A stretch of DNA of 32,904 nucleotides from a virus (lineage: Duplodnaviria > Heunggongvirae > Uroviricota > Caudoviricetes), in the IMG/VR virus record IMGVR_UViG_2778261269_000003, positions 1 through 32,904 of that record, one strand, 5' to 3'. The notes under the pieces are model-generated. The model saw only the letters and a program-made list of their open reading frames with translations, ran no database searches and was not told where the DNA came from. Of the stretch, positions 1 to 32,904 are shown piece by piece. A program made the translations under genes and the position numbers. Numbering within the stretch: the stretch's first letter is position 1; each line of letters begins with the position of its first letter.

Positions 1-510
1 ATGGCTACATACGGCGGTCAGTTTACGCTTACAAAACAGGGGGACACAAAAGACACTATTACAAAAGAAAAAAGAAAAGATTATTCGTCAGAGAATTCTG
101 GCGAATCCTCTGACCAGCCAGAAAACGACCTTTCTGTGGTGAAACCGGATGCTGCAATTCAGAGCGGCAGCAAGTGGGGGACAGCAGAAGACCTGACCGC
201 CGCAGAGTGGATGTTTGACATGGTGAAGACCATCGCGCCATCAGCCAGAAAACCGAATTTTGCAGGGTGGGCTAACGATATCCGTCTGATGCGTGAACGT
301 GATGGACGTAACCACCGCGACATGTGTGTACTGTTCCGCTGGGCCTGCCAGGACAACTTCTGGTCCGGTAACGTGCTGAGTCCGGCCAAACTCCGCGACA
401 AGTGGACCCAGCTCGAAATCAACCGGAACAAGCAACAGGCTGGCGTGACAGCCGGAAAACCAAAACTCGACCTGACAAACACTGACTGGATTTACGGGGT
501 GGATTTATGA
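1..510 (+). CDS. O: Replication initiation protein O, C-terminal part; gene probably begins upstream of the window
   Basis: ORF runs from base 1 to stop at 508-510 and is immediately followed by a lambda P-like gene with ATGA overlap; translation recalled as matching the lambda O C-terminal region (by memory, not searched). Confidence 0.8.
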   Translation: MATYGGQFTLTKQGDTKDTITKEKRKDYSSENSGESSDQPENDLSVVKPDAAIQSGSKWGTAEDLTAAEWMFDMVKTIAPSARKPNFAGWANDIRLMRERDGRNHRDMCVLFRWACQDNFWSGNVLSPAKLRDKWTQLEINRNKQQAGVTAGKPKLDLTNTDWIYGVDL

Positions 511-1208
511 AAAACATCGCCGCACAGATGATTAACTTTGACCGTGAGCAGATGCGTCGGATCGCCAACAACATGCCGGAACAGTACGACGAAAAGCCGC
601 AGGTACAGCAGGTAGCGCAGATCATCAACGGTGTGTTCAGCCAGTTACTGGCAACTTTCCCGGCGAGCCTGGCTAACCGGGACCAGAACGAACTGAACGA
701 AATCCGCCGCCAGTGGGTTCTGGCTTTCCGGGAAAACGAGATCACCACAATGGAACAGGTTAACGCAGGAATGCGCGTAGCCCGTCGGCAGAATCGACCA
801 TTCCTGCCATCACCCGGGCAGTTTGTTGCATGGTGCCGTGAAGAAGCATCCGTTATTGCCGGACTGCCAAACGCCAGCGAGCTGGTTGATATGGTTTACG
901 AGTATTGCCGGAAGCGTGGCCTGTATCCGGATGCAGAGTCTTATCCGTGGAAATCAAACGCGCACTACTGGCTGGTTACCAACCTGTATCAGAACATGCG
1001 GGCCAATGCGTTGACTGACGCGGAATTACGGCGCAAGGCTGCCGATGAACTGTCCTGTATGACCGCGCGAATTAACCGTGGTGAGGCGATACCTGAACCA
1101 GTAAAACAACTTCCTGTCATGGGCGGTAGACCTCTAAATCGTGCACAGGCTCTGGCGAAGATCGCAGAAATCAAAGCTAAGTTCGGACTGAAAGGAGCAA
1201 GTGTATGA
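507..1208 (+). CDS. P: Replication protein P (DnaB helicase loader)
   Basis: 233 aa translation (MKNIAAQMINFDREQMRRIANNMPEQYDE...AKFGLKGASV) recalled as near-identical to lambda P; start overlaps the O stop. Confidence 0.93.
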   Translation: MKNIAAQMINFDREQMRRIANNMPEQYDEKPQVQQVAQIINGVFSQLLATFPASLANRDQNELNEIRRQWVLAFRENEITTMEQVNAGMRVARRQNRPFLPSPGQFVAWCREEASVIAGLPNASELVDMVYEYCRKRGLYPDAESYPWKSNAHYWLVTNLYQNMRANALTDAELRRKAADELSCMTARINRGEAIPEPVKQLPVMGGRPLNRAQALAKIAEIKAKFGLKGASV

Positions 1209-23362: not shown

Positions 23363-23741
23363 TTTCATCAGCAAGGTGATCGGCGTGCCTTGGGCTAACC
23401 GGGCCTGCTCGTTCGAGAAAGTCGACTGCTGGGGATTGTGCGTGCTGTATTACCGGCATGTTCTCGGCATTGAGTTGCATCAGACGCCGGATTACGAAGC
23501 CGGCGAGGACTTCTTCACCTGCTATCAGGGTGACGTCGTTTTCTGGCGCCAGGTCGATAAACCAGTTGAAGGTGGGATATTCGTCGGGTACTGCGGCTCG
23601 CAACCGGCACACGTTGGCCTGGTGCTTAACCGGCAGGCGCTGCACTCGCGGGGCGAGAACGGCAGTGTGCGCATGGACTCGTTACTGGTTATTCAGAGGG
23701 CTTTCACTAAAGTGGAGTATTTTTCTTATGGCGCTGGTTGA
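23325..23741 (+). CDS. Tail-associated NlpC/P60-family cysteine peptidase
   Basis: 138 aa with candidate catalytic Cys in VDCWGLCVLYY and downstream His in PAHVGLVL. Confidence 0.62.
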   Translation: MTLRNTPGYSTSDFISKVIGVPWANRACSFEKVDCWGLCVLYYRHVLGIELHQTPDYEAGEDFFTCYQGDVVFWRQVDKPVEGGIFVGYCGSQPAHVGLVLNRQALHSRGENGSVRMDSLLVIQRAFTKVEYFSYGAG

Positions 23742-26205
23742 GATATCGAATTTTCCAGGAACGCCTAAGCTGCGTTGCAGGGTGCCAAACGGTACCCTTT
23801 TTTATGACTGGCTGGCGGCCAATGATGCCACCTTTCACAGTGATCTGCTAATCGTCCGCAACGGCGTGAGGTTAAGTGATGATGATGAGCTGGCGTTTGA
23901 ACTGAGCGAACTGGACAACATCCAGATATTCGACCAGCCAAAAGGTATCGTCAGCGATATCCTGAGCCCGATCTTCAAAGTTGTAGGCGCTGTGTTTTCC
24001 TTCCTGGCTCCTAAGCCTGCAATTGCTAACAACGGTGGCAACACCGTCGACTCACCGAATAATAGCCTGACTGGGCAGACAAATACCGCCAGAGTATACA
24101 AAGCGAAGCCTGACATTTATGGTCAGGTCAGATCGTTTCCCGACTTGATTCAGGAATCGATGTTTGAATATGTGCGCCAGAGCGAGAACGATGGTGGCCT
24201 GAAATATGTCACTGAGTGGATGTGTATTGGTATAGGTAAGTATGACTATGAGTCTGTTCGTTACTCAGAGTCGAGTCTTGGATCGATGGCCGGTGCTGAA
24301 TACCAGTTTTATCAGCCTGGTGAAGTGATACCGACTATTAACGAGGGGTATTCGTTCGACGATGTTGACGGGCAGGAGATGCCAGGGCCCAACGAAAGCG
24401 ACAATTTCCCAGTAGAATCTGCGACGGCAAATACCGTAGTAAGTGGTGATTATGCTGGAGGCCAGATAGCGATGAAAATCGTCAAGCAGGCTGAGTTCGA
24501 CTACTTCATGGGGCTCGTGCTACCGCATTCTGTCACCTTTACAATTAATGTCACCTACAACACTACATCGGGCAGCGTTACAGAAGATGTGCTTTTCTCA
24601 GGTACGCTGATTTCTGCTGTAGAGAGTGATGATGGTTCCTTGATAGACCATGTTCAGTGGTACACGTTCACCATGACAGATTTGCAGGGACCGCCAACAG
24701 TTCCATCTACTGCCACCATTAACACGACAAAATTCATTCTCAATGATAACGAGGCGCTTGTTGTGGGGCCTTTCTTCTCGCCTGTTGAGTCAACTGAGCT
24801 GTGGCTGCATACACAGTCATCACTTGGTGGCGGTAACTGGACGGACTGGACGGTAACAATCTGGAAAATTGACGACGATTACAATCAGATCCCCGGAACT
24901 CAGCAGGCCTTCACCTATCATCAGGGAACGCCGCATAAGTCGACCAGCGAAGTGTTTTATCGCACCGATAAAATAATTCCAGCAGGAGGGTTTGGTAAAT
25001 ACGCCATCAACTTCCAGCGTACAAACAACTCCAATGATGCCTCTATCCTGAAGGTCGAAGAGATTCACGCCGTTAATATTCGCAGCAATGTGGTTCACCC
25101 GACTGATACGCTTGTTCGTGTGAAGGTCAGGGCGACAGAGAATGCACTGGGTAGCCGTGACCGCAAATACAACGCCATGGTGACTCGCCATACCATCAGT
25201 TACAACCTGACGACACAGTCCGTGGATTACACATTACGGCCGTCTCGGTCGTTTGCTGACGCGGTGGCGCATACCTGGCTTGTAATGGGAGGCCAACCAG
25301 AAAACAGTATTGATCTGTACGGCCTGTACTCTATCGTGGAAAGCCTGCCTGATGAGCGGCTGGGCTACTTCGACTACACGTTTGACGATGAGAACGACTC
25401 ACTTGGTGACAGGGTGCAGGCGATCTGCAATGCAGCATCCGTCATGGCGTACTGGGATGACGGTGTGCTGACATTCACCCGCGACCAGAAGGTTGATTAT
25501 CCTGCTGCTGTATTCAACCGGGCCAACATGAAGACAGACGAGTACAAAATTACGTACGAAGCCACTCTTCCCGGAGGTTACGACGGCGTTCAGGTCTCCT
25601 ACGTTCATCCGACTACGAATAACAAGACGTACATCAACTACCGCGTTCTGAACGGCGTTATCGTCGAGCAGGAAGCTGAGAACCCAAACAAGCTTGAGAT
25701 AGTAGGATTCCGTAACGAGTACCAGGCTCGTGAGCGAGCGTTACGCGAAACAAAGCGGCTTATCTACTCCCGGGTGAAGATGAATGCCAAGGTATTTGAG
25801 GACGGGATTATCCAGGTGGGCAGCGTTATCCAGATGCCGGATATCTACGACAGCAACCAGCAGCAGGGTTACATCACCGGCCGCACTGGGAATAACTTCG
25901 ATACGAGCGAACCAATCAAGTTTACCGGAACGATGTATGTTCTGGTTACTGACAGCTTGGGCAATCCAACACTGCGTTATCCGGCAACGGCCCGCAGCGA
26001 CACGAAATATGGATTTACTGCAGCAATACCCACCATTCAGCTCAACATATGGAACGGAGACACTGTGCAGCTCCCGTCGCGCTATCTCATAGCGACCGTA
26101 GAAGAGTTAGATAGTCAATTATGGACAGTCAACAGCATCAAACCGAACACTGACAATACGGTATCCCTGATCGTCGCAGAGTACAGCGACTCAGTCTACG
26201 GATAG
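23728..26205 (+). CDS. Large tail tip / host specificity protein
   Basis: 825 aa from ATG 23728 (GGAG upstream); follows NlpC/P60 gene as in lambda-J-type and GTA-type tail tip modules. Confidence 0.65.
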   Translation: MALVEISNFPGTPKLRCRVPNGTLFYDWLAANDATFHSDLLIVRNGVRLSDDDELAFELSELDNIQIFDQPKGIVSDILSPIFKVVGAVFSFLAPKPAIANNGGNTVDSPNNSLTGQTNTARVYKAKPDIYGQVRSFPDLIQESMFEYVRQSENDGGLKYVTEWMCIGIGKYDYESVRYSESSLGSMAGAEYQFYQPGEVIPTINEGYSFDDVDGQEMPGPNESDNFPVESATANTVVSGDYAGGQIAMKIVKQAEFDYFMGLVLPHSVTFTINVTYNTTSGSVTEDVLFSGTLISAVESDDGSLIDHVQWYTFTMTDLQGPPTVPSTATINTTKFILNDNEALVVGPFFSPVESTELWLHTQSSLGGGNWTDWTVTIWKIDDDYNQIPGTQQAFTYHQGTPHKSTSEVFYRTDKIIPAGGFGKYAINFQRTNNSNDASILKVEEIHAVNIRSNVVHPTDTLVRVKVRATENALGSRDRKYNAMVTRHTISYNLTTQSVDYTLRPSRSFADAVAHTWLVMGGQPENSIDLYGLYSIVESLPDERLGYFDYTFDDENDSLGDRVQAICNAASVMAYWDDGVLTFTRDQKVDYPAAVFNRANMKTDEYKITYEATLPGGYDGVQVSYVHPTTNNKTYINYRVLNGVIVEQEAENPNKLEIVGFRNEYQARERALRETKRLIYSRVKMNAKVFEDGIIQVGSVIQMPDIYDSNQQQGYITGRTGNNFDTSEPIKFTGTMYVLVTDSLGNPTLRYPATARSDTKYGFTAAIPTIQLNIWNGDTVQLPSRYLIATVEELDSQLWTVNSIKPNTDNTVSLIVAEYSDSVYG

Positions 26206-26226
26206 AACCTAATCCGAATATCACAA

Positions 26227-26251
26227 CCCGGCCACTGAGCCGGTTTTTTTA
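26227..26251 (+). terminator. Rho-independent terminator between tail tip and fibre genes
   Basis: CCGGC-CACTGA-GCCGG followed by seven T. Confidence 0.55.
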
Positions 26252-26261
26252 TGGAAAAATT

Positions 26262-28637
26262 ATGGCCACCCAACCAACAAATAACGCAGTGCCAAGCGAA
26301 TCACCCCGTGATCTGAAGTTTAACGCGGGGAAAATTGATGAGTTCGTTACGTCTGAGAATCATGATTATGTTGACAGATTTGGCAATAAACATCGTACAA
26401 TTGAAGGCATAAATTACGATTCGAACCAGGCAATTCTGAATTATGGCTATATCACGAAGGATTCTTTTGAAGATGGCAGCACCATTAGCCTTGCTAACGA
26501 GTGCTTACGCTGGAAGAGCAACGGCGAGTACTACAGATGGGATGGGTCACTCCCCAAAGTAGTTCCCCCTGGCTCTACTCCGGAAGGCACTGGTGGGCTA
26601 GGGAAAGGTAAGTGGGTTGGTGTCGGAGATGCATCTTTGCGATCGGCAATGAAGAATGAGAATGGTACTGATTTAATTAATGGAACAAAATCTGTTGTTG
26701 GGTCAGTTACAAGATCACTAACAGATATGTTGTCAGACAAGATATCCGTGCGGGATTTTGGCGGAATTGATGACTATGATGGAACAAATGCATCAACATG
26801 CACTAACAACAGAATTCCATTTCAACGGTATTTTGAATATCTTAATTCAATTGGCGGTGGCGATCTAAATATTCCACGTAAATTAACCGGGAAATATTTT
26901 ATTAGTGGTGATGACCACACACAAGTTACCTCTAAAGTTCGTTTAAATACTGACGAAGGTGTATCTATACATCTTGATTTCTCTGGAGGTGCTTCAAATA
27001 CTCCATTTGCCAATCTCGATTTAAGGGCATCGAGCCAGATAAAGATTGAGTATGTTAATTTTGGTTATCCGTCATATGTTGGTGGTAGCGTAGACACGCC
27101 ATTTAGTGACTCTTTGCAAACCATGAACAATGGTGATGGTATTTACACGGTGCCAGAAGTACTATCAGGTAGTGATTTTAAAGTCATTTCATTGGGAAAT
27201 AGCTCTGTTGAAATACCACCGTTATCAACATCCGGAGATACAATCTCTTTTAATGGCGGAGGGGTTCCAACTGCAGCAGTCATCAGCGTGACTCCTGGTG
27301 ACGAAATTATGGCGTTAATAGGCTCGAATTCGCTTGGGGGAATTATTGCCGGTGTCGTCACGGTTAATGGCTATGCTTATGTTTCTCAAGATACTTCTAG
27401 TGGTAATATTACCCTTGCAGAAGGCACGATAGGGCAGCCAAATATACTAACTGGTCTTAATTATGCTCTCATGGATCAGCTAAGAGATCGGTTTGACCGT
27501 GCTATCATAACAGTAAAAATTACTTCATCGAGAACCTTTACCGTTATGGCTAACGGTCTGGCAATATGCAGTCATACCACCAGGTCTAGTATTCTTGGCG
27601 CTTGTCTTGGTACTTCCGACATTAATAGTATTGTGAATGTATCACAAATGTCTCGAGTTAGAGGGCATAGTTTTTCCGGGTCCAAGCCTTTGAGGATATT
27701 GGTTTGCGGAGATTCAATTACCGATCAAAATAATCAATATTCATGGGCCAAATATCTCCAGATGCAGTTGGGCTCAGCTGGCGTTAACATTGCAGAGATA
27801 AATAATTTAGCAGTGGCTGGACAGACAGCGGCCCAACAACTCAGCATCCTGAAAACTGTTGGTGTAGGATATGATATCTGCCTGATACAGGTTGGTGTAA
27901 ATGATGTTCAGTTACAGACTCCGGTAGCATCCTTCATTTCGACAATAAATGAAATGGTCACTTACGCGAAGGGGATTGGAGCATTTCCGATTGTTGGTGT
28001 ACCCACGGCTTTTTATTCTCTTGCAGAGGCGAATGCTAATGGGCAAACGGGAGGGCAAAACACATCAAACAACTCTTCGATAGGGATGTACCGATCGCTT
28101 CTTATTCGTGCTGTTGCAGCAGCTGGCGGAATTGTTAACCTTGAGCCTATGAAAGGACATGGAGCTATGACGGCTAAGTGGCTGTCACTGAAACCGTATG
28201 CCGTCAGCGATAGCATCGTGCTGGACAATATTCACCCCACTCCATATGGGTCGATGCTCCTGGCACAAGGATATGCGCGATGCATTCTTGGATGGCTTAC
28301 TAGGCCTGACATGACACCAACGGAAAGCTTTGAATTTATTCCTAGCGGGTGGCTTAGCCCAGGATTTGGCGAAACATCGATCCCTAAAATTAAAGGAAGG
28401 GAGTTCTCTGGGTTGATAAGTCTGCATGCAACAAATATCAATGATGGTTCAGTGGCCTTCACTTTGCCACCATCATTTAAAGTAGATAACGTTAAGATGC
28501 TTGCGGTGACAGGGACAAACAGTTCCGGGCTTCCGGTAGGTGTTTGTAATTTATATGTTGGGACAGACGGGAAGTGTTACTTCTTTAATATTCCAGAAGG
28601 AGTTACCCAAGTATCAATGGACGGTGTGGTTTTATAG
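26262..28637 (+). CDS. Tail fibre / tailspike with embedded SGNH (GDSL) esterase domain
   Basis: 791 aa; SGNH blocks ILVCGDSITDQ (GDS at 27708-27716), IQVGVNDV, and LDNIHPT (DxxH at 28224-28235). Confidence 0.78.
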   Translation: MATQPTNNAVPSESPRDLKFNAGKIDEFVTSENHDYVDRFGNKHRTIEGINYDSNQAILNYGYITKDSFEDGSTISLANECLRWKSNGEYYRWDGSLPKVVPPGSTPEGTGGLGKGKWVGVGDASLRSAMKNENGTDLINGTKSVVGSVTRSLTDMLSDKISVRDFGGIDDYDGTNASTCTNNRIPFQRYFEYLNSIGGGDLNIPRKLTGKYFISGDDHTQVTSKVRLNTDEGVSIHLDFSGGASNTPFANLDLRASSQIKIEYVNFGYPSYVGGSVDTPFSDSLQTMNNGDGIYTVPEVLSGSDFKVISLGNSSVEIPPLSTSGDTISFNGGGVPTAAVISVTPGDEIMALIGSNSLGGIIAGVVTVNGYAYVSQDTSSGNITLAEGTIGQPNILTGLNYALMDQLRDRFDRAIITVKITSSRTFTVMANGLAICSHTTRSSILGACLGTSDINSIVNVSQMSRVRGHSFSGSKPLRILVCGDSITDQNNQYSWAKYLQMQLGSAGVNIAEINNLAVAGQTAAQQLSILKTVGVGYDICLIQVGVNDVQLQTPVASFISTINEMVTYAKGIGAFPIVGVPTAFYSLAEANANGQTGGQNTSNNSSIGMYRSLLIRAVAAAGGIVNLEPMKGHGAMTAKWLSLKPYAVSDSIVLDNIHPTPYGSMLLAQGYARCILGWLTRPDMTPTESFEFIPSGWLSPGFGETSIPKIKGREFSGLISLHATNINDGSVAFTLPPSFKVDNVKMLAVTGTNSSGLPVGVCNLYVGTDGKCYFFNIPEGVTQVSMDGVVL

Positions 28638-28641
28638 TTCC

Positions 28642-28665
28642 GTGTGGGAGGTCTCCCTCCCACAC
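28642..28665. terminator. Bidirectional hairpin between convergent fibre and acylation-cassette genes
   Basis: Perfect 10-bp GC-rich stem GTGTGGGAGG / CCTCCCACAC with 4-nt loop TCTC; weak T-tract on + side. Confidence 0.5.
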
Positions 28666-28671
28666 TCACTA

Positions 28672-29751
28672 TTAATTGTAAGGGGTTTCTCTTTCCATTT
28701 CTAAAACTATGGCTCTGAAATTTCTATTAAACTCATAACCAGGTTTATTATGTAACTCTGCATTTATGCAGTCTCCTAGAAGAGAACTTCTGATTCTAGC
28801 ACCATACCCATTGGTATGATAAGCAGAGTCCATAAATAATTTTCCTCCAAGATTAGACGCGCTTGGTGCGCAAATAACGTTAATACCAGCAACAGAAAGC
28901 AAACCCTTAAGTTTCATTAACGACTGCATGGTTTGTCCATTATCAGTGTCAAACCCCGGATTTCGCATCGTAACAGGCCATGTAATAAATAATTTCCCAC
29001 CTTTATTAGAAACAAAATTATTTATTTCCTTGAGTGTTGTATATGTATGTTCAGATATTTTAGGAATGTCTGAGTTATATGTAAATGTGCCATTATACAC
29101 AGAATCGTAAACAGTTTTACCGTCAATAAAAACATTGATGTCACCGTTTTTATTTAGACTTTTATAACTGTACCCATTATATTCACCATTGGTAGAGTTA
29201 AGATGATTGATGACATCACTCAACGGTGAAACCAGGCCTTTATCTTCAGCATTAAATCCTTCAACTAACCTTTTGGGGCTAACATTCATCATGAACTTTA
29301 TACGGTTATAAATGTTGATGCTTGATAGGTAATCCTGGCCCCACCCCAATATATTATTAACAAACCAATCAGTTGGTGCTTCCGTACGTGTGTAGTACTC
29401 ATACTCAAGCGGCATTACAACGATATCACCATTTTTAAAATGCTTTTTTAATTGATAAAAATGATAGTTTATATCTAGCTCTGCATGCGTTGCAATATTT
29501 ACAACTGGAAGTGATGTTTTATGGGAAATAATTTCACTATTTATAGAAAATAAGCTATTCGACCCGCTAGAGATTATTATTTTTTTCCCATTTATCCTGT
29601 CAGCGGCAACGCCTTTAAAATCAATTACGTTCTTTAGCCACCACTCACCTACAACCTGCTTTCCTTCCTGCATTTTGAAAGCATAAATAAACGTCCCAGC
29701 GGCAAATGCAAGTATTGCTAAGAATATAGAGAAGCTGAATTTATAATTCAC
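28672..29751 (-). CDS. DltD/AlgJ-like membrane-anchored partner protein of MBOAT acyltransferase
   Basis: 359 aa with N-terminal TM anchor, C-terminal FMDSAYHTNGYG resembling the DltD/AlgJ D..H..G.G motif; GTG start 9 nt after MBOAT stop with AAGGG RBS. Confidence 0.55.
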   Translation of the reverse strand: MNYKFSFSIFLAILAFAAGTFIYAFKMQEGKQVVGEWWLKNVIDFKGVAADRINGKKIIISSGSNSLFSINSEIISHKTSLPVVNIATHAELDINYHFYQLKKHFKNGDIVVMPLEYEYYTRTEAPTDWFVNNILGWGQDYLSSINIYNRIKFMMNVSPKRLVEGFNAEDKGLVSPLSDVINHLNSTNGEYNGYSYKSLNKNGDINVFIDGKTVYDSVYNGTFTYNSDIPKISEHTYTTLKEINNFVSNKGGKLFITWPVTMRNPGFDTDNGQTMQSLMKLKGLLSVAGINVICAPSASNLGGKLFMDSAYHTNGYGARIRSSLLGDCINAELHNKPGYEFNRNFRAIVLEMERETPYN

Positions 29752-29760
29752 TGTTCGCCC

Positions 29761-31203
29761 TTAAAAATTGAAGTAAATAAAGGATCCGGGAGCCGCCCCA
29801 CCCAAGGAAGCAGTCACTGCAATGCAAACGCCAAAGGCACACAGGCATGGAGCAAGCAGATTCCACGCTATACCACTCTTATGTTCTTTGGTCATCTCCA
29901 TGAAAACATTAGAATTTACATTAATTAAGCACGTCATAATGGCAATGGCGCAAACAGCTATCATATAGAAACCACCTTTCGATGCCTCATAGAGGAATGA
30001 GTCCGCAAAAGGTTGAGCATATTTAAATCCGGAAACCAAAGAATCGTAACCAGCAAACATTTTCTTTAGCAAACTAAAAGCATCATTTAAGTTATCTGTT
30101 CTGAAGAAAATCCAGGTGATATTCACGTAATTGAATGTTATAAACCAACCTACAACGCTCGGCATGCGAAAGCCATTTTGTGACCAATACCTGTGAATGA
30201 CAAGCCCAGCCCCGTGTAAAGCGCCCCACGCCAAAAAATTCCATCCAGCTCCATGCCAGAAACCGCCGATCAAAAACGTCAAAAACAGGTTTAGATATGT
30301 GCGTAATACACCATTTCGGTTTCCGCCAAGAGGAATGTAGACATAATTCCTGAGCCACGTGGAAAGGGTAATGTGCCAGCGTCTCCAGAAATCTTGAAGG
30401 TCTGTTGCTATGTATGGTGAATTGAAGTTGATAGGCAGCACAACGCCAAACAGAAGGGCCGAGCCAATCGCCATGTCAGTATATCCGGAGAAATCAAAGT
30501 ATAACTGGATACTGTATGAGAGGCTGGTTATCCATGCCTCCAAAGCACCAAGGGCTGAGATATTTGCATAACCTTGATCCGCTATAGAGCCAAAATATGA
30601 AGACAAGACAACTTTTTTGAATATTCCGACACTAAATATAAATACTGCGGGAACGAAATATTTCCCGAAATAATTATCCCTTGAGTTGAGTTGGTTTGTA
30701 ATTACATCATAATTTGTTATCGGGCCAGAGATGAGCTTAGGGAAAAACAAAATGTAGCAGCAATAATTTAATATTGAAATGTTAGATATCTGCTTTCTAT
30801 ACAAACTAACTGATAAAGAAATCTGCTGAAATGTATAGAAGCTTATGGCTAACGGCGCAATAACATTCATGTGGCCTATATTTAGGTTGAAAATACTAGA
30901 TATGTTACTTGCAAAGAAGTTGCAGTATTTAAAATAACCAAGAGATGCCACGTTAAATATAACTGATAATGCTACATATAATTTTGTCTTTTCAGATTTC
31001 ATCATTGTTAATATTGCGTAGTTTATCAGCATCGATATCAACAAAAGAGGCAAGAAATTAAATGTGAAAAAAGTATAGAAATACAGGCTAGCGCAACAAA
31101 TCCACACCTTGGAGAGAGCAATGTTAAATTTTTTCAGGAAAAGGAATATCAATACCACCAAAGGTAAAAACATTACAGAATATTCTAACGAGTTAAATAA
31201 CAT
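29761..31203 (-). CDS. MBOAT-family membrane-bound O-acyltransferase (AlgI/DltB/PatA-like)
   Basis: 480 aa polytopic membrane protein with the MBOAT His motif FWRRWHITLSTWLRNYVYIPLGGNR; very AT-rich. Confidence 0.8.
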   Translation of the reverse strand: MLFNSLEYSVMFLPLVVLIFLFLKKFNIALSKVWICCASLYFYTFFTFNFLPLLLISMLINYAILTMMKSEKTKLYVALSVIFNVASLGYFKYCNFFASNISSIFNLNIGHMNVIAPLAISFYTFQQISLSVSLYRKQISNISILNYCCYILFFPKLISGPITNYDVITNQLNSRDNYFGKYFVPAVFIFSVGIFKKVVLSSYFGSIADQGYANISALGALEAWITSLSYSIQLYFDFSGYTDMAIGSALLFGVVLPINFNSPYIATDLQDFWRRWHITLSTWLRNYVYIPLGGNRNGVLRTYLNLFLTFLIGGFWHGAGWNFLAWGALHGAGLVIHRYWSQNGFRMPSVVGWFITFNYVNITWIFFRTDNLNDAFSLLKKMFAGYDSLVSGFKYAQPFADSFLYEASKGGFYMIAVCAIAIMTCLINVNSNVFMEMTKEHKSGIAWNLLAPCLCAFGVCIAVTASLGGAAPGSFIYFNF

Positions 31204-31749
31204 GCCTTATCCCTTATATAAGTTATCAATCAAGTTTAAACCGCTATCAGAACACCAAATTCGCTTATCCATTCATGAACCTCTTCCACGCGCAATCTGC
31301 AACCACACTTAACATCCATGGTATTAACTTTAATTCCTAAAATTAGTGACATGGAGTTTACCACTACAGAGAAATCTGATCATTACTTGATCGAAAGAAG
31401 GGAACGTGGTGCTGTGCGTATACACAGCAATGGTCGGAGAAGCATCTCTGATCCCATATGCTCGCTCTTTGGTGGTTTGCAGAATGGAAGGCGAGTTGAG
31501 GATAAGGCGATATCGTAAATCATCAACTCCTCACCTGGAGGAATTGCAGACGGGGAGGCGTAAAAGATACCAGTGCACGATGACGGAACTAGCCCGGATG
31601 CGATCTTTGGGATGTTCACCTACATCATCCACGATGTTCGCTCTGACGAGTTCGACGACTTTCTGGTGATGTGATGGGGCATGGATGAGGAAAACATTAT
31701 CGAAAACAACCCAAAACAGATGGAGTTGAGAGGTGTCTTGCACCATTTC
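31204..31749. other. Non-coding region between conversion cassette and integrase; candidate attP and promoter of the reverse-strand cassette
   Basis: About 550 bp with only short mutually overlapping ORFs; lies at the 3' end of int as attP does in lambda; no tRNA-like T-arm seen. Confidence 0.3.
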
Positions 31750-32904
31750 TCACAACTTACCATCAAGCCAGTCTGCCCACCACTGCATCATCTCCCTGCG
31801 CTTATCCATGTACTGAGCGTGATTGTATATCCCACGCACAGATCCGCCGTTTGCATGTGCCAGTTGCACTTCAATAGCGTCAGCAGGCCATTCGTGCTCG
31901 TTCATAATCGTGCTGAATTCATGCCTGAATCCGTGACCGCTTTCCAGACCCTCATAGCCGATTTGTTTGATCACAAGCAGTACCGCGTTCTCGCAGATTG
32001 GCTTCTTCTTATCGTTGCGCCCGGCAAAAACAAACTCTGAGACTGGTTTGGTGATGGAGCTTAGCGTAGTGAGAAGTTCAACTACCTGGTCTGACATAGG
32101 AACCACATGAATTTTGCGTCCTTTCATCACACTGGCGTCGATGGTGATAATCCTATTTTCAAAATCGACGTTCTTCCATAGCATGGAACGAAGCTCTTTC
32201 GTTCTTAGGGCTGTGTAGCGTAAAACTTTGGTCGCAATGAGCGATACGATACTTCCTGAAAATGTTGCCAGTGCTTTGTTGAATGCCGGGATCTGGTCTG
32301 CAGGAAGAAACGGGAAGTTCTTCTTGCGGTATCCCTTCATGGCGTCAGCAAGGTCAGGTGCCGGGTTATATTTAGCCCTTCCGGTGACAATAGCGTAACG
32401 GAAAACCTCGCCGCATCTTCTGCGTGCTTTGTTGGCTCGTTCCATTGCACCGCGATCTTCAAACCTGCGGATTACTTCCAGCAGTTGCATCGGCTCAATA
32501 TCCTGAATTTCAAGGCCGCCAATGATAGGTAAAATGTCGTCGTCAAACATTTTGGCAAGTTCAGTTGCATACCCTACTGACCATACTTGCTTCTTGTGCT
32601 CGTACCATTCCTTGTAAATCGCACTAAAGGAATTGTTGTTAGACGAAGCCTTTTTCGCCTTTACAGGATCGATGCCAACCGAGATGTCTTTCCTCGCAGT
32701 CCATGCTTTATCCCTTGCCTCCTGCAAAGTCATAAGCGGATATTTTCCGACGGTCAGGATTTTCTCCTTACCGTCAATCTTGTAGCGAAGCTGCCATACC
32801 TTTTTCCCTGACACAGGGACATAAAGGTACAGGCCATTACCATCGAGAAGGCGGTATGGTTTTTCTTTCGGCTTTGCTGCTTCAATCTGCTTAACGGTGA
32901 GCAT
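31750..32904 (-). CDS. int: Tyrosine site-specific integrase (P4-type N-terminal arm-binding domain)
   Basis: 384 aa; start codon is the last three bases of the window; N-terminus ...KPKEKPYRLLDGNGLYLYV..., C-terminus HGFRHEFST...RGIYNHAQY with conserved His/Arg/Tyr residues. Confidence 0.9.
   Translation of the reverse strand: MLTVKQIEAAKPKEKPYRLLDGNGLYLYVPVSGKKVWQLRYKIDGKEKILTVGKYPLMTLQEARDKAWTARKDISVGIDPVKAKKASSNNNSFSAIYKEWYEHKKQVWSVGYATELAKMFDDDILPIIGGLEIQDIEPMQLLEVIRRFEDRGAMERANKARRRCGEVFRYAIVTGRAKYNPAPDLADAMKGYRKKNFPFLPADQIPAFNKALATFSGSIVSLIATKVLRYTALRTKELRSMLWKNVDFENRIITIDASVMKGRKIHVVPMSDQVVELLTTLSSITKPVSEFVFAGRNDKKKPICENAVLLVIKQIGYEGLESGHGFRHEFSTIMNEHEWPADAIEVQLAHANGGSVRGIYNHAQYMDKRREMMQWWADWLDGKL

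Follow-up and report, generated by a model that had tools for sequence, protein, structure and literature searches.

The window analysed here, a stretch of 32,904 nucleotides of tailed-phage DNA, raises the question of whether its tail spike carries an enzyme directed against the bacterial surface, which chemical group this enzyme would attack and how the two genes that follow the spike gene might be related to it. The element is an E. coli prophage of a temperate lambdoid siphovirus, and the flanks of identical loci place its integration site at an argW-type site, beside yfdC in identical prophages. The spike gene begins 57 nt downstream of a gene encoding a TipJ-type tail-tip protein, the true start of which is probably internal (a product of 825 aa is called in identical prophages). 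Two genes convergent with the spike gene stand after it, the nearer encoding a putative acyltransferase partner and the farther an MBOAT O-acyltransferase (Table 1).

Table 1. Positions of the features discussed, in nucleotides of the window; residue numbers are those of the spike.
Feature	Coordinates	Strand	Evidence
TipJ-type host-specificity / tail-tip protein gene	23458..26205	+	Relatives annotated 'host specificity factor TipJ family phage tail protein'
Tail spike gene, 791 aa, with predicted esterase domain	26262..28637	+	List of open reading frames; Pfam Tail_spike_N and Lipase_GDSL_2
N-terminal virion-attachment adaptor, residues 1–140	26262..26681	+	Pfam Tail_spike_N; PDB 9occ_G
Conserved neck domain, residues ~160–290, DFGGxDDxDGT motif	26739..27131	+	Conservation; model pLDDT 80–90
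All-beta sandwich, residues ~296–470	27147..27671	+	Model pLDDT >90, all strands; Foldseek
Predicted SGNH/GDSL esterase domain, residues 477–680	27690..28301	+	Pfam Lipase_GDSL_2 at 482–663
Block I, ILVCGDSITDQ, residues 479–489, predicted nucleophile Ser485	27696..27728	+	
Block II, NLAVAGQTAA, predicted oxyanion-hole Gly520	27804..27833	+	
Block III, IQVGVNDV, residues 542–549, predicted oxyanion-hole Asn547	27885..27908	+	
Block V, LDNIHPT, residues 654–660, predicted catalytic Asp655 and His658	28221..28241	+	
C-terminal beta domain, residues ~700–791	28359..28634	+	Model pLDDT 85–93, all strands; conserved in homologues
359-aa membrane-anchored protein, DltD-like SGNH fold, putative acyl-acceptor-specific transferase partner	28672..29751	-	
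480-aa MBOAT O-acyltransferase, C-terminal acyl-shuttle motif FIYFNF	29761..31203	-	Pfam MBOAT, E 2.7e-35
Tyrosine integrase, prophage end	31750..32904	-	Pfam Phage_integrase, Arm-DNA-bind_3

Judging from its sequence, the 791-aa product is a tail spike or fibre, because it combines a Tail_spike_N adaptor and a match to PDB 9occ with a position right after the TipJ gene; the adaptor and this position agree with the tail fibre proposed in the preliminary description. Pfam Tail_spike_N (PF18668) matches residues 65–123 (E 1.2e-17) and the 'putative tail protein gp13' of 9occ covers residues 1–134 (E 2e-47). This adaptor is an exchangeable module, and homologues of the C-terminal part of the spike bear others (PF03906, PF09008, PF12571, PF27114 and PF26208). 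That the C-terminal module follows phage adaptors of at least six kinds is the signature of a receptor-binding module. Next to the adaptor, the neck domain contains four residues that are invariant in the alignment of homologues (D170, D171, G174 and N182), and the phmmer alignment of the spike with CBA120 TSP3 (6nw9) reaches residue 263. The following beta-sandwich matches in Foldseek galectin-fold lectins as well as enzymes that join a beta-sandwich to an SGNH domain (YxiM, PbeAcXE and Ape1), and its model points to a putative glycan-binding domain of lectin or CBM type.

The SGNH blocks GDS, GxND and DxxH had been reported beforehand between positions 27690 and 28250; all three are found there, in this order, and the glycine of block II (G520 in NLAVAGQTAA) can be added to them. 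An HMM search identifies an SGNH/GDSL domain by Lipase_GDSL_2 (E 7.5e-13, 49.8 bits for a gathering score of 32.9) and by Lipase_GDSL (29.6 bits for a cut-off of 23.6), and the predicted structure also favours this assignment, the domain fitting the three-layer alpha/beta/alpha SGNH fold. Among 29 aligned sequences with identities down to 28%, the invariant residues include G483, D484 and S485, G520, G545, N547 and D548, and D655, N656, I657, H658 and P659. Since the Pfam matches lie above their cut-offs and these residues are invariant across the alignment, the presence of SGNH motifs in the spike goes far beyond chance.

The spike had been likened to that of coliphage G7C, and this comparison holds for the architecture and the N-terminal adaptor; for the SGNH domain, no sequence kinship is detectable. 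The tailspike gp63.1 of G7C (PDB 4QNL), an O-antigen deacetylase, shares with the spike studied here an adaptor of the Tail_spike_N type: residues 92–166 of 4qnl match the N-terminus of the spike in phmmer (E 9e-9), and both gp63.1 and the CBA120 TSPs match the spike at residues 58–133 only. No 4qnl match extends beyond this adaptor, whether the query is the whole protein or residues 467–693 in phmmer or a 15-sequence profile, so that a close kinship between the SGNH domain and that of gp63.1 was rejected. As only the adaptor is detectably related, the likeness to G7C is an analogy of architecture rather than close homology. The flanking domains differ too, as do the phages: G7C is N4-like, a virulent podovirus, and the element described here is a prophage of a temperate lambdoid siphovirus. 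Receptor-binding proteins of temperate or virulent phages in which an SGNH esterase takes the place of the beta-helix depolymerase are also known from temperate Klebsiella phages (PMC13123978) and, as deacetylase spikes, from Acinetobacter phage Aristophanes and Pectobacterium phages PP99 and Possum; they involve other hosts and other glycans, their target being the capsule. Further counterparts are SGNH/GDSL spikes of E. coli prophages of the same TipJ-type family (exemplified by the 860-aa WP_122927289 of strain L73), which share the gene position, the adaptor and the same module of beta-sandwich, SGNH and C-terminal domains, with the motifs GDSITD, QIGVNDIQ and DNIHPT. These spikes are only 26% identical to that of the window (residues 317–789), and where the window has the MBOAT pair, their prophages have an AT3 acyltransferase gene downstream. 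The closest homologue from cultured phages, found in Aeromonas phages, is only 29% identical. The initial statement that such spikes are known from 'a few phages' understates the case: SGNH receptor-binding proteins have been reported to be highly prevalent in Klebsiella prophages, and an NCBI entry 100% identical to the 791-aa spike is already named 'GDSL-type esterase/lipase family protein'. The spike therefore adds one member to a recognised and common class and its kind is not new.

It is highly probable that the spike is a receptor-binding, virion-borne polysaccharide O-acetyl esterase and that the downstream pair is an O-acyltransferase system of lysogenic conversion. For the spike, the O-acetyl esterase is the best reading, and we infer from it the catalysis, the glycan substrate and the role in adsorption. 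Its action may be pictured as follows. The adaptor would fix the spike to the tail tip, leaving a receptor module made of the neck, the lectin-like beta-sandwich, the SGNH esterase and the small C-terminal beta domain. This module would bind an O-acetylated surface polysaccharide, either the O-antigen or another envelope glycan, and would hydrolyse its acetyl esters through a triad of Ser485 (the nucleophile), His658 and Asp655, with the oxyanion hole formed by Gly520 and Asn547, while the sugar backbone would be left intact. Repeated binding and release would move the virion down to the outer membrane, as has been shown for gp63.1 of G7C. The latter deacetylates the O-antigen, an activity that is essential for infection (PMC10743462), and SGNH receptor-binding proteins of Klebsiella prophages hydrolyse pNP-acetate, two proteins being active (PMC13123978). 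A phage with such a spike would read whether a surface sugar is acetylated and not what its backbone is; its host range and the resistance to it would hinge on O-acetylation, which is usually missed by serotyping and by O/K-locus typing.

Two other readings of the SGNH domain have to be considered. Among PDB sequences, the domain comes closest to TesA/lysophospholipase-like enzymes and to an acetyl-xylan esterase, with an E of only ~1e-5, so that the substrate class is not fixed by homology. That the domain is of the lipase or lysophospholipase type, acting on outer-membrane lipids or on LPS acyl chains and helping tail penetration rather than attacking acetylated sugars, is very unlikely. Binding modules derived from enzymes normally lose their catalytic residues. 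In this spike, the nucleophile, oxyanion-hole and acid/base residues are all among the positions that do not vary in the alignment, the E. coli spikes of 860 aa, distant as they are, keep them too and the dN/dS of the receptor module is 0.15, all of which argues against a domain that has lost catalysis and serves only for structure or for lectin-like recognition of the receptor. The loop 632–656, directly before the DxxH block, is poorly modelled (pLDDT <50), which leaves the geometry of the triad as a prediction and would fit such a loss, but a binding-only domain is highly improbable.

The more interesting part of the locus, namely the MBOAT and its partner, lies just outside the region covered by the preliminary description. 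The MBOAT carries its conserved histidine as His277 in FWRRWHITLSTW and has two extra C-terminal TM helices (411–429 and 449–467), absent from DltB, after which it ends in FIYFNF; its homologues end in FIYAAF or FLYFQF. The FxYxxF acyl-shuttle hexapeptide has been defined for the PatA-type MBOATs (PMC12148441). For the partner, fold comparison finds DltD, PatB and OafB to be the closest, DltD being the best and above PatB. Its Ser and His are conserved, with GSN instead of GDS in block I and a DxxxH motif whose Asp is not invariant. It belongs to no named family according to searches of Pfam, NCBIfam, PHROGs and PDB sequences, so that the fold alone places it, and ten of its relatives, most of them from low down among the 150 matches listed, have no Pfam match either; neither the MBOAT nor the partner was found in PHROGs. 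The SGNH domains of spike and partner were considered as possible paralogues, and this was rejected (hhalign probability of 0.4%, with only the region of the block V His aligning).

An MBOAT with an invariant His next to a partner with an SGNH fold is likewise found in PatA/PatB, AlgI/AlgJ-AlgX, WssH/WssI and DltB/DltD (PMC12148441). In contrast to these bacterial pairs, the one described here is borne by a phage, occupies the seroconversion slot and has a partner that falls outside the Pfam, NCBIfam and PHROG families. The pair fills the slot in which related prophages carry AT3 acyltransferases. The Oac of Sf6 and the GtrC of BTP1 (AT3 family) are encoded at the same place, with the tail spike gene on one side and the integrase gene on the other, and the presumed common role is to acylate the glycan receptor of the spike in lysogens; these are single AT3 proteins, whereas the MBOAT and its SGNH-fold partner form a two-protein system. 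Most likely, the MBOAT and its partner O-acylate a glycan of the host envelope in lysogens and thereby cause lysogenic conversion. Alternatively, the pair could be an unrelated fitness moron that O-acetylates peptidoglycan, in the manner of PatA/PatB, or some polymer other than the receptor of the spike. This is unlikely: seroconversion genes canonically lie in the slot that separates spike and integrase, and in relatives the AT3 (Oac-like) genes located there vary along with the spike. In addition, the lineages differ more in the partner than in the MBOAT, which would be expected of a partner that follows a changing acceptor glycan, and the best structural matches of the partner are with DltD and not with PatB. 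A literature search retrieved no paper joining MBOAT with lysogenic conversion, and among the 14 papers that mention both MBOAT and prophage, no title or abstract deals with a phage MBOAT. A conversion cassette made of an MBOAT and its partner would add a second enzyme class to phage serotype conversion, besides AT3/Oac and Gtr, and would assign a function to a large unannotated family (~4,800 cluster representatives, no Pfam model). With a predicted esterase spike and a probable O-acyltransferase in the same prophage, a single element may determine how the E. coli surface is acetylated and also detect it.

Whether spike and acyltransferase act on the same group is a separate matter. The spike esterase might remove the exact acyl group that the MBOAT and its partner install, a private mark on the host glycan that this phage family alone could open. 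Such a system could serve in counter-exclusion against heteroimmune relatives or in receptor destruction that frees the progeny from lysogen debris; the mark would then shield the lysogens from other phages while kin virions could still take it off, or it would allow the progeny to escape from this debris. Consistent with this, the genes for spike, partner and MBOAT are contiguous and their order recurs in five diverged lineages, among them that of Cedecea, in which the identity to the genes of the window is only 30% for the spike module, 54% for the partner and 69% for the MBOAT. Stranded cassettes in E. coli YZ22MPE6, Ewingella and Cedecea also preserve the block, and other SGNH spikes of E. 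coli prophages likewise precede acyltransferases, AT3 genes being found downstream of esterase spikes in five prophages (M37H, L73, XJ5.2, 20A24 and XJ55). However, AT3 acyltransferases also stand behind spikes of this prophage family that have no esterase, beta-helix ones among them. In four prophages, the slot holds an acyltransferase or acetyltransferase gene behind a beta-helix spike (D9 and strain 53), a 'head-binding' one (A14) or one annotated only as hypothetical (FDAARGOS_1277). Within the related E. coli TipJ-type prophages, the slot is thus filled behind esterase and non-esterase spikes alike, and the idea of an acyltransferase neighbour proper to esterase spikes was rejected. Conversely, homologues of the pair adjoin receptor-binding proteins other than SGNH ones, and the pair is missing behind about ten homologues of the spike for which the downstream sequence is long enough. 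The dS values of spike and MBOAT differ about nine-fold, which implies that the block is mosaic. In the classical paradigm (oac of Sf6; GtrC of BTP1, PMC4413052), conversion blocks the phage's own spike and does not feed it. The removal by the spike of the very group that the pair adds is for these reasons rather doubtful.

The stranded cassettes were also considered as a possible domestication of the esterase, and this found no support: the E. coli remnant and a phage contig (L005) are equally diverged from the window, with identical dN and dS. This equal divergence, together with uniformly low dN/dS, fits recent decay and hitch-hiking of the cassettes.

The three SGNH motifs that the preliminary description had read in the tail fibre are present at the place claimed, as re-derivation of their positions from the ORF translation showed (see the table), and block II is also found (NLAVAGQT, G520). 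Pfam Lipase_GDSL_2 matches residues 482–663 of this spike (E 7.5e-13, 49.8 bits, for a gathering score of 32.9) and Tail_spike_N matches residues 65–123. Among the 42 homologues gathered for the part downstream of the adaptor, 28 were aligned with the window protein; G483, D484, S485, G520, G545, N547, D548, D655 and H658 are invariant across this alignment, down to 28% identity. An AlphaFold2 model built on the homologue alignment (mean pLDDT 77, mostly 80–95 in the receptor module, residues ~160–791) predicts five successive parts. Its top Foldseek matches, YxiM, PbeAcXE and Ape1, are enzymes combining a beta-sandwich and an SGNH domain, which argues against a non-hydrolase fold; the middle domain also matches galectin-fold lectins. 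The loop 632–656, directly before the DxxH block, is poorly modelled and the catalytic triad is a predicted one. The initial observation is confirmed, and its reading as an esterase spike acting on surface polysaccharide is supported computationally.

Coordinates of the spike, its motifs and modelled parts, and the downstream genes in the window
Feature	Nucleotides	Residues	Strand	Remarks
Spike ORF	26262..28637	791 aa	+	starts 57 nt downstream of a TipJ-type tail-tip gene
N-terminal adaptor	26262-26681		+	part 1 of 5 in the AlphaFold2 model
Receptor module	26682-28637		+	
Conserved neck		~160-290		AlphaFold2 model
All-beta sandwich		~296-470		AlphaFold2 model
SGNH domain		477-680		AlphaFold2 model
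C-terminal beta domain		~700-791		AlphaFold2 model
GDS block	27696-27728	479-489	+	motif located in translation
GxND block	27885-27908	542-549	+	motif located in translation
DxxH block	28221-28241	654-660	+	motif located in translation
Partner	28672..29751	359 aa	-	one N-terminal transmembrane helix
MBOAT	29761..31203	480 aa	-	Pfam MBOAT, E 2.7e-35
CTCAA-CTCAA tandem	30680-30689		-	MBOAT coding nt 511-515

The likeness to gp63.1, the tailspike of coliphage G7C (PDB 4qnl), holds for architecture and superfamily and, by sequence, for the adaptor only (residues 58–133, E 9e-9). It does not extend to the sequence of the SGNH domain: 4qnl was missed both by a search with the SGNH region alone and by a 15-sequence profile of that region, so that there the resemblance is one of architecture and superfamily. 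In the PDB, the sequence of this region best matches TesA/lysophospholipase-like enzymes and an acetyl-xylan esterase (E ~1e-5). Judging from these comparisons, the SGNH domains of the two spikes would most likely have been recruited independently. Deacetylase spikes are on record for G7C, the Pectobacterium phages PP99 and Possum and the Acinetobacter phage Aristophanes. NCBI lists an identical spike protein under the name 'GDSL-type esterase/lipase family protein [Escherichia coli]', and public assemblies contain it in at least 116 blocks. Other SGNH spikes lie at the same gene position in related E. coli prophages; an 860-aa type shares the three motifs with the window spike but only 26% identity over residues 317–789. 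No close homologue was found among the cultured phages of the INPHARED GenBank phage collection, the best match (29% identity) being from Aeromonas phages. The spike is new and uncharacterised, of a kind that is already known and common.

The esterase receptor module has been shuffled among no fewer than six types of virion adaptor, in hosts ranging from Escherichia to Aeromonas: Tail_spike_N, the T7 tail-fibre N-terminus PF03906, the P22 Head_binding domain PF09008, PF27114, PF26208 and the tail-collar domain PF12571 (examples are proteins P0018, P0025, P0028–P0031 and P0042).

The following scheme can be proposed for the action of the spike. The adaptor would fix it to the tail tip. For all steps from glycan binding onward, we infer that the beta-sandwich and SGNH domains would bind an O-acetylated surface glycan, whose acetyl ester would be attacked by Ser485, with His658 as the base, Asp655 as the acid and the oxyanion stabilised by Gly520 and Asn547. 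The tail could then reach the membrane through repeated cycles of binding, deacetylation and release, as previously proposed for G7C (PMC10743462).

The two genes that follow are convergent with the spike gene and lie between it and the integrase gene, where lysogenic-conversion genes classically sit. GC content falls from ~53% to 30–46% over 26100–31500, across the spike receptor module (43%) and these two genes (35% and 38%, for 53% in the rest of the window), which indicates that the cassette was horizontally acquired. The invariant histidine of the MBOAT protein, His277, lies within FWRRWHITLSTW; the protein has two extra C-terminal transmembrane helices and ends in FIYFNF, which fits the FxYxxF 'acyl shuttle' motif of PatA. 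PatA auto-acetylates the tyrosine of this motif and then hands the acetyl to PatB, whereas DltB lacks the motif (PMC12148441). The partner has no sequence match in Pfam, NCBIfam, PHROG or PDB. It would be membrane-anchored, and its confident model (pLDDT 91.5) predicts a DltD-like SGNH fold; G62, S63, N64, H311 and N313 are invariant, and H311 aligns with the block V histidine of the spike. From the MBOAT motifs and these partner traits, the two proteins look like a putative MBOAT–SGNH O-acyltransferase pair for lysogenic conversion. No PHROG family was found for either protein and a literature search found no description of a phage MBOAT conversion module; this phage-borne pair is the part most deserving of experimental follow-up. 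The partner family is large: a cut-off of E <= 1e-3 yields 4,790 cluster representatives, one of <= 1e-30 yields 441. Ten relatives checked, most of them taken low in the list of 150 matches, have no Pfam match. Some members (among P0044–P0216) carry ~130 additional C-terminal residues.

In three sister prophages (L004, L039 and L040), whose spike is identical to that of the window and whose integrase is just 83% identical, one copy of the CTCAA-CTCAA tandem is lost and the resulting frameshift splits the MBOAT ORF. This could reflect decay or a slippage-prone on/off site of the conversion module.

The spike esterase might remove the very ester that the pair installs, but such a write-and-erase relationship appears unlikely. 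The order spike, partner, MBOAT does recur in five diverged lineages (spike/partner/MBOAT identity to the window 97/95/84, 60/63/87, 62/59/76, 61/55/67 and 30/54/69%), and E. coli YZ22MPE6, E. coli LF4-1, Ewingella americana and Cedecea davisae have kept the three-gene block while lacking the remainder of the prophage. In YZ22MPE6, Ewingella and Cedecea, the block lies amid housekeeping genes, other phage genes being absent; the Cedecea spike has two in-frame stops in its adaptor, its esterase part being still open with intact motifs. The simplest explanation for these three stranded blocks is hitch-hiking with a selected conversion module. Domestication was also considered, and dN/dS gave no sign of it. 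However, some ten spike homologues whose downstream sequence is long enough lack the pair, and its homologues also adjoin non-SGNH spikes and fibres. Furthermore, the spike genes of the window and YZ22MPE6 show a synonymous divergence of 0.11, against 0.26 between their partner genes and 0.91 between their MBOAT genes, so the three-gene block is a mosaic.

Related E. coli TipJ-type prophages, which serve as the decisive control, also argue against such a tie, as they carry an AT3 acyltransferase in the post-spike slot whether the spike is an esterase (M37H, L73, XJ5.2, 20A24, and XJ55 with its separate SGNH protein) or not (D9 and strain 53, beta-helix; A14, another type). AT3 is alone in the slot in seven of these relatives (among L058–L067); in XJ55, an IS5 element separates it from the 227-aa SGNH protein, and FDAARGOS_1277 carries instead a GNAT acetyltransferase and a 'polysaccharide deacetylase family protein'. 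The post-spike slot is a general conversion slot, and with the MBOAT pair the window has an unusual occupant there. On the best reading of this comparison, the slot gene would be matched to whichever glycan the adjacent spike uses, on the model of Sf6 oac and BTP1 gtrC.

As a whole, the window is a temperate E. coli prophage of the lambdoid group. In the early region it shares ~95% identity with HK140 and ~93% with lambda; its tail genes resemble, at ~82–87% identity, those of a siphovirus family from E. coli and Enterobacter, and a tyrosine integrase is encoded at its right end. In identical prophages elsewhere, yfdC, mlaA and fadL adjoin the integrase end, and one related prophage has a tRNA-Arg gene at the same junction, so that the integration site is of the argW type. 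Two small ORFs (87 and 119 aa, 31406-32040, + strand) without any Pfam match lie between the MBOAT and integrase genes; the 119-aa ORF shares sequence with the 3' end of the integrase gene, which is read from the other strand, and may thus not be a real gene. In XJ5.2, Tn3 and IS3 remnants with the quinolone-resistance gene qnrS1 truncate the prophage on the upstream side of its NlpC/P60 tail gene, so that a resistance island sits inside a decaying prophage.
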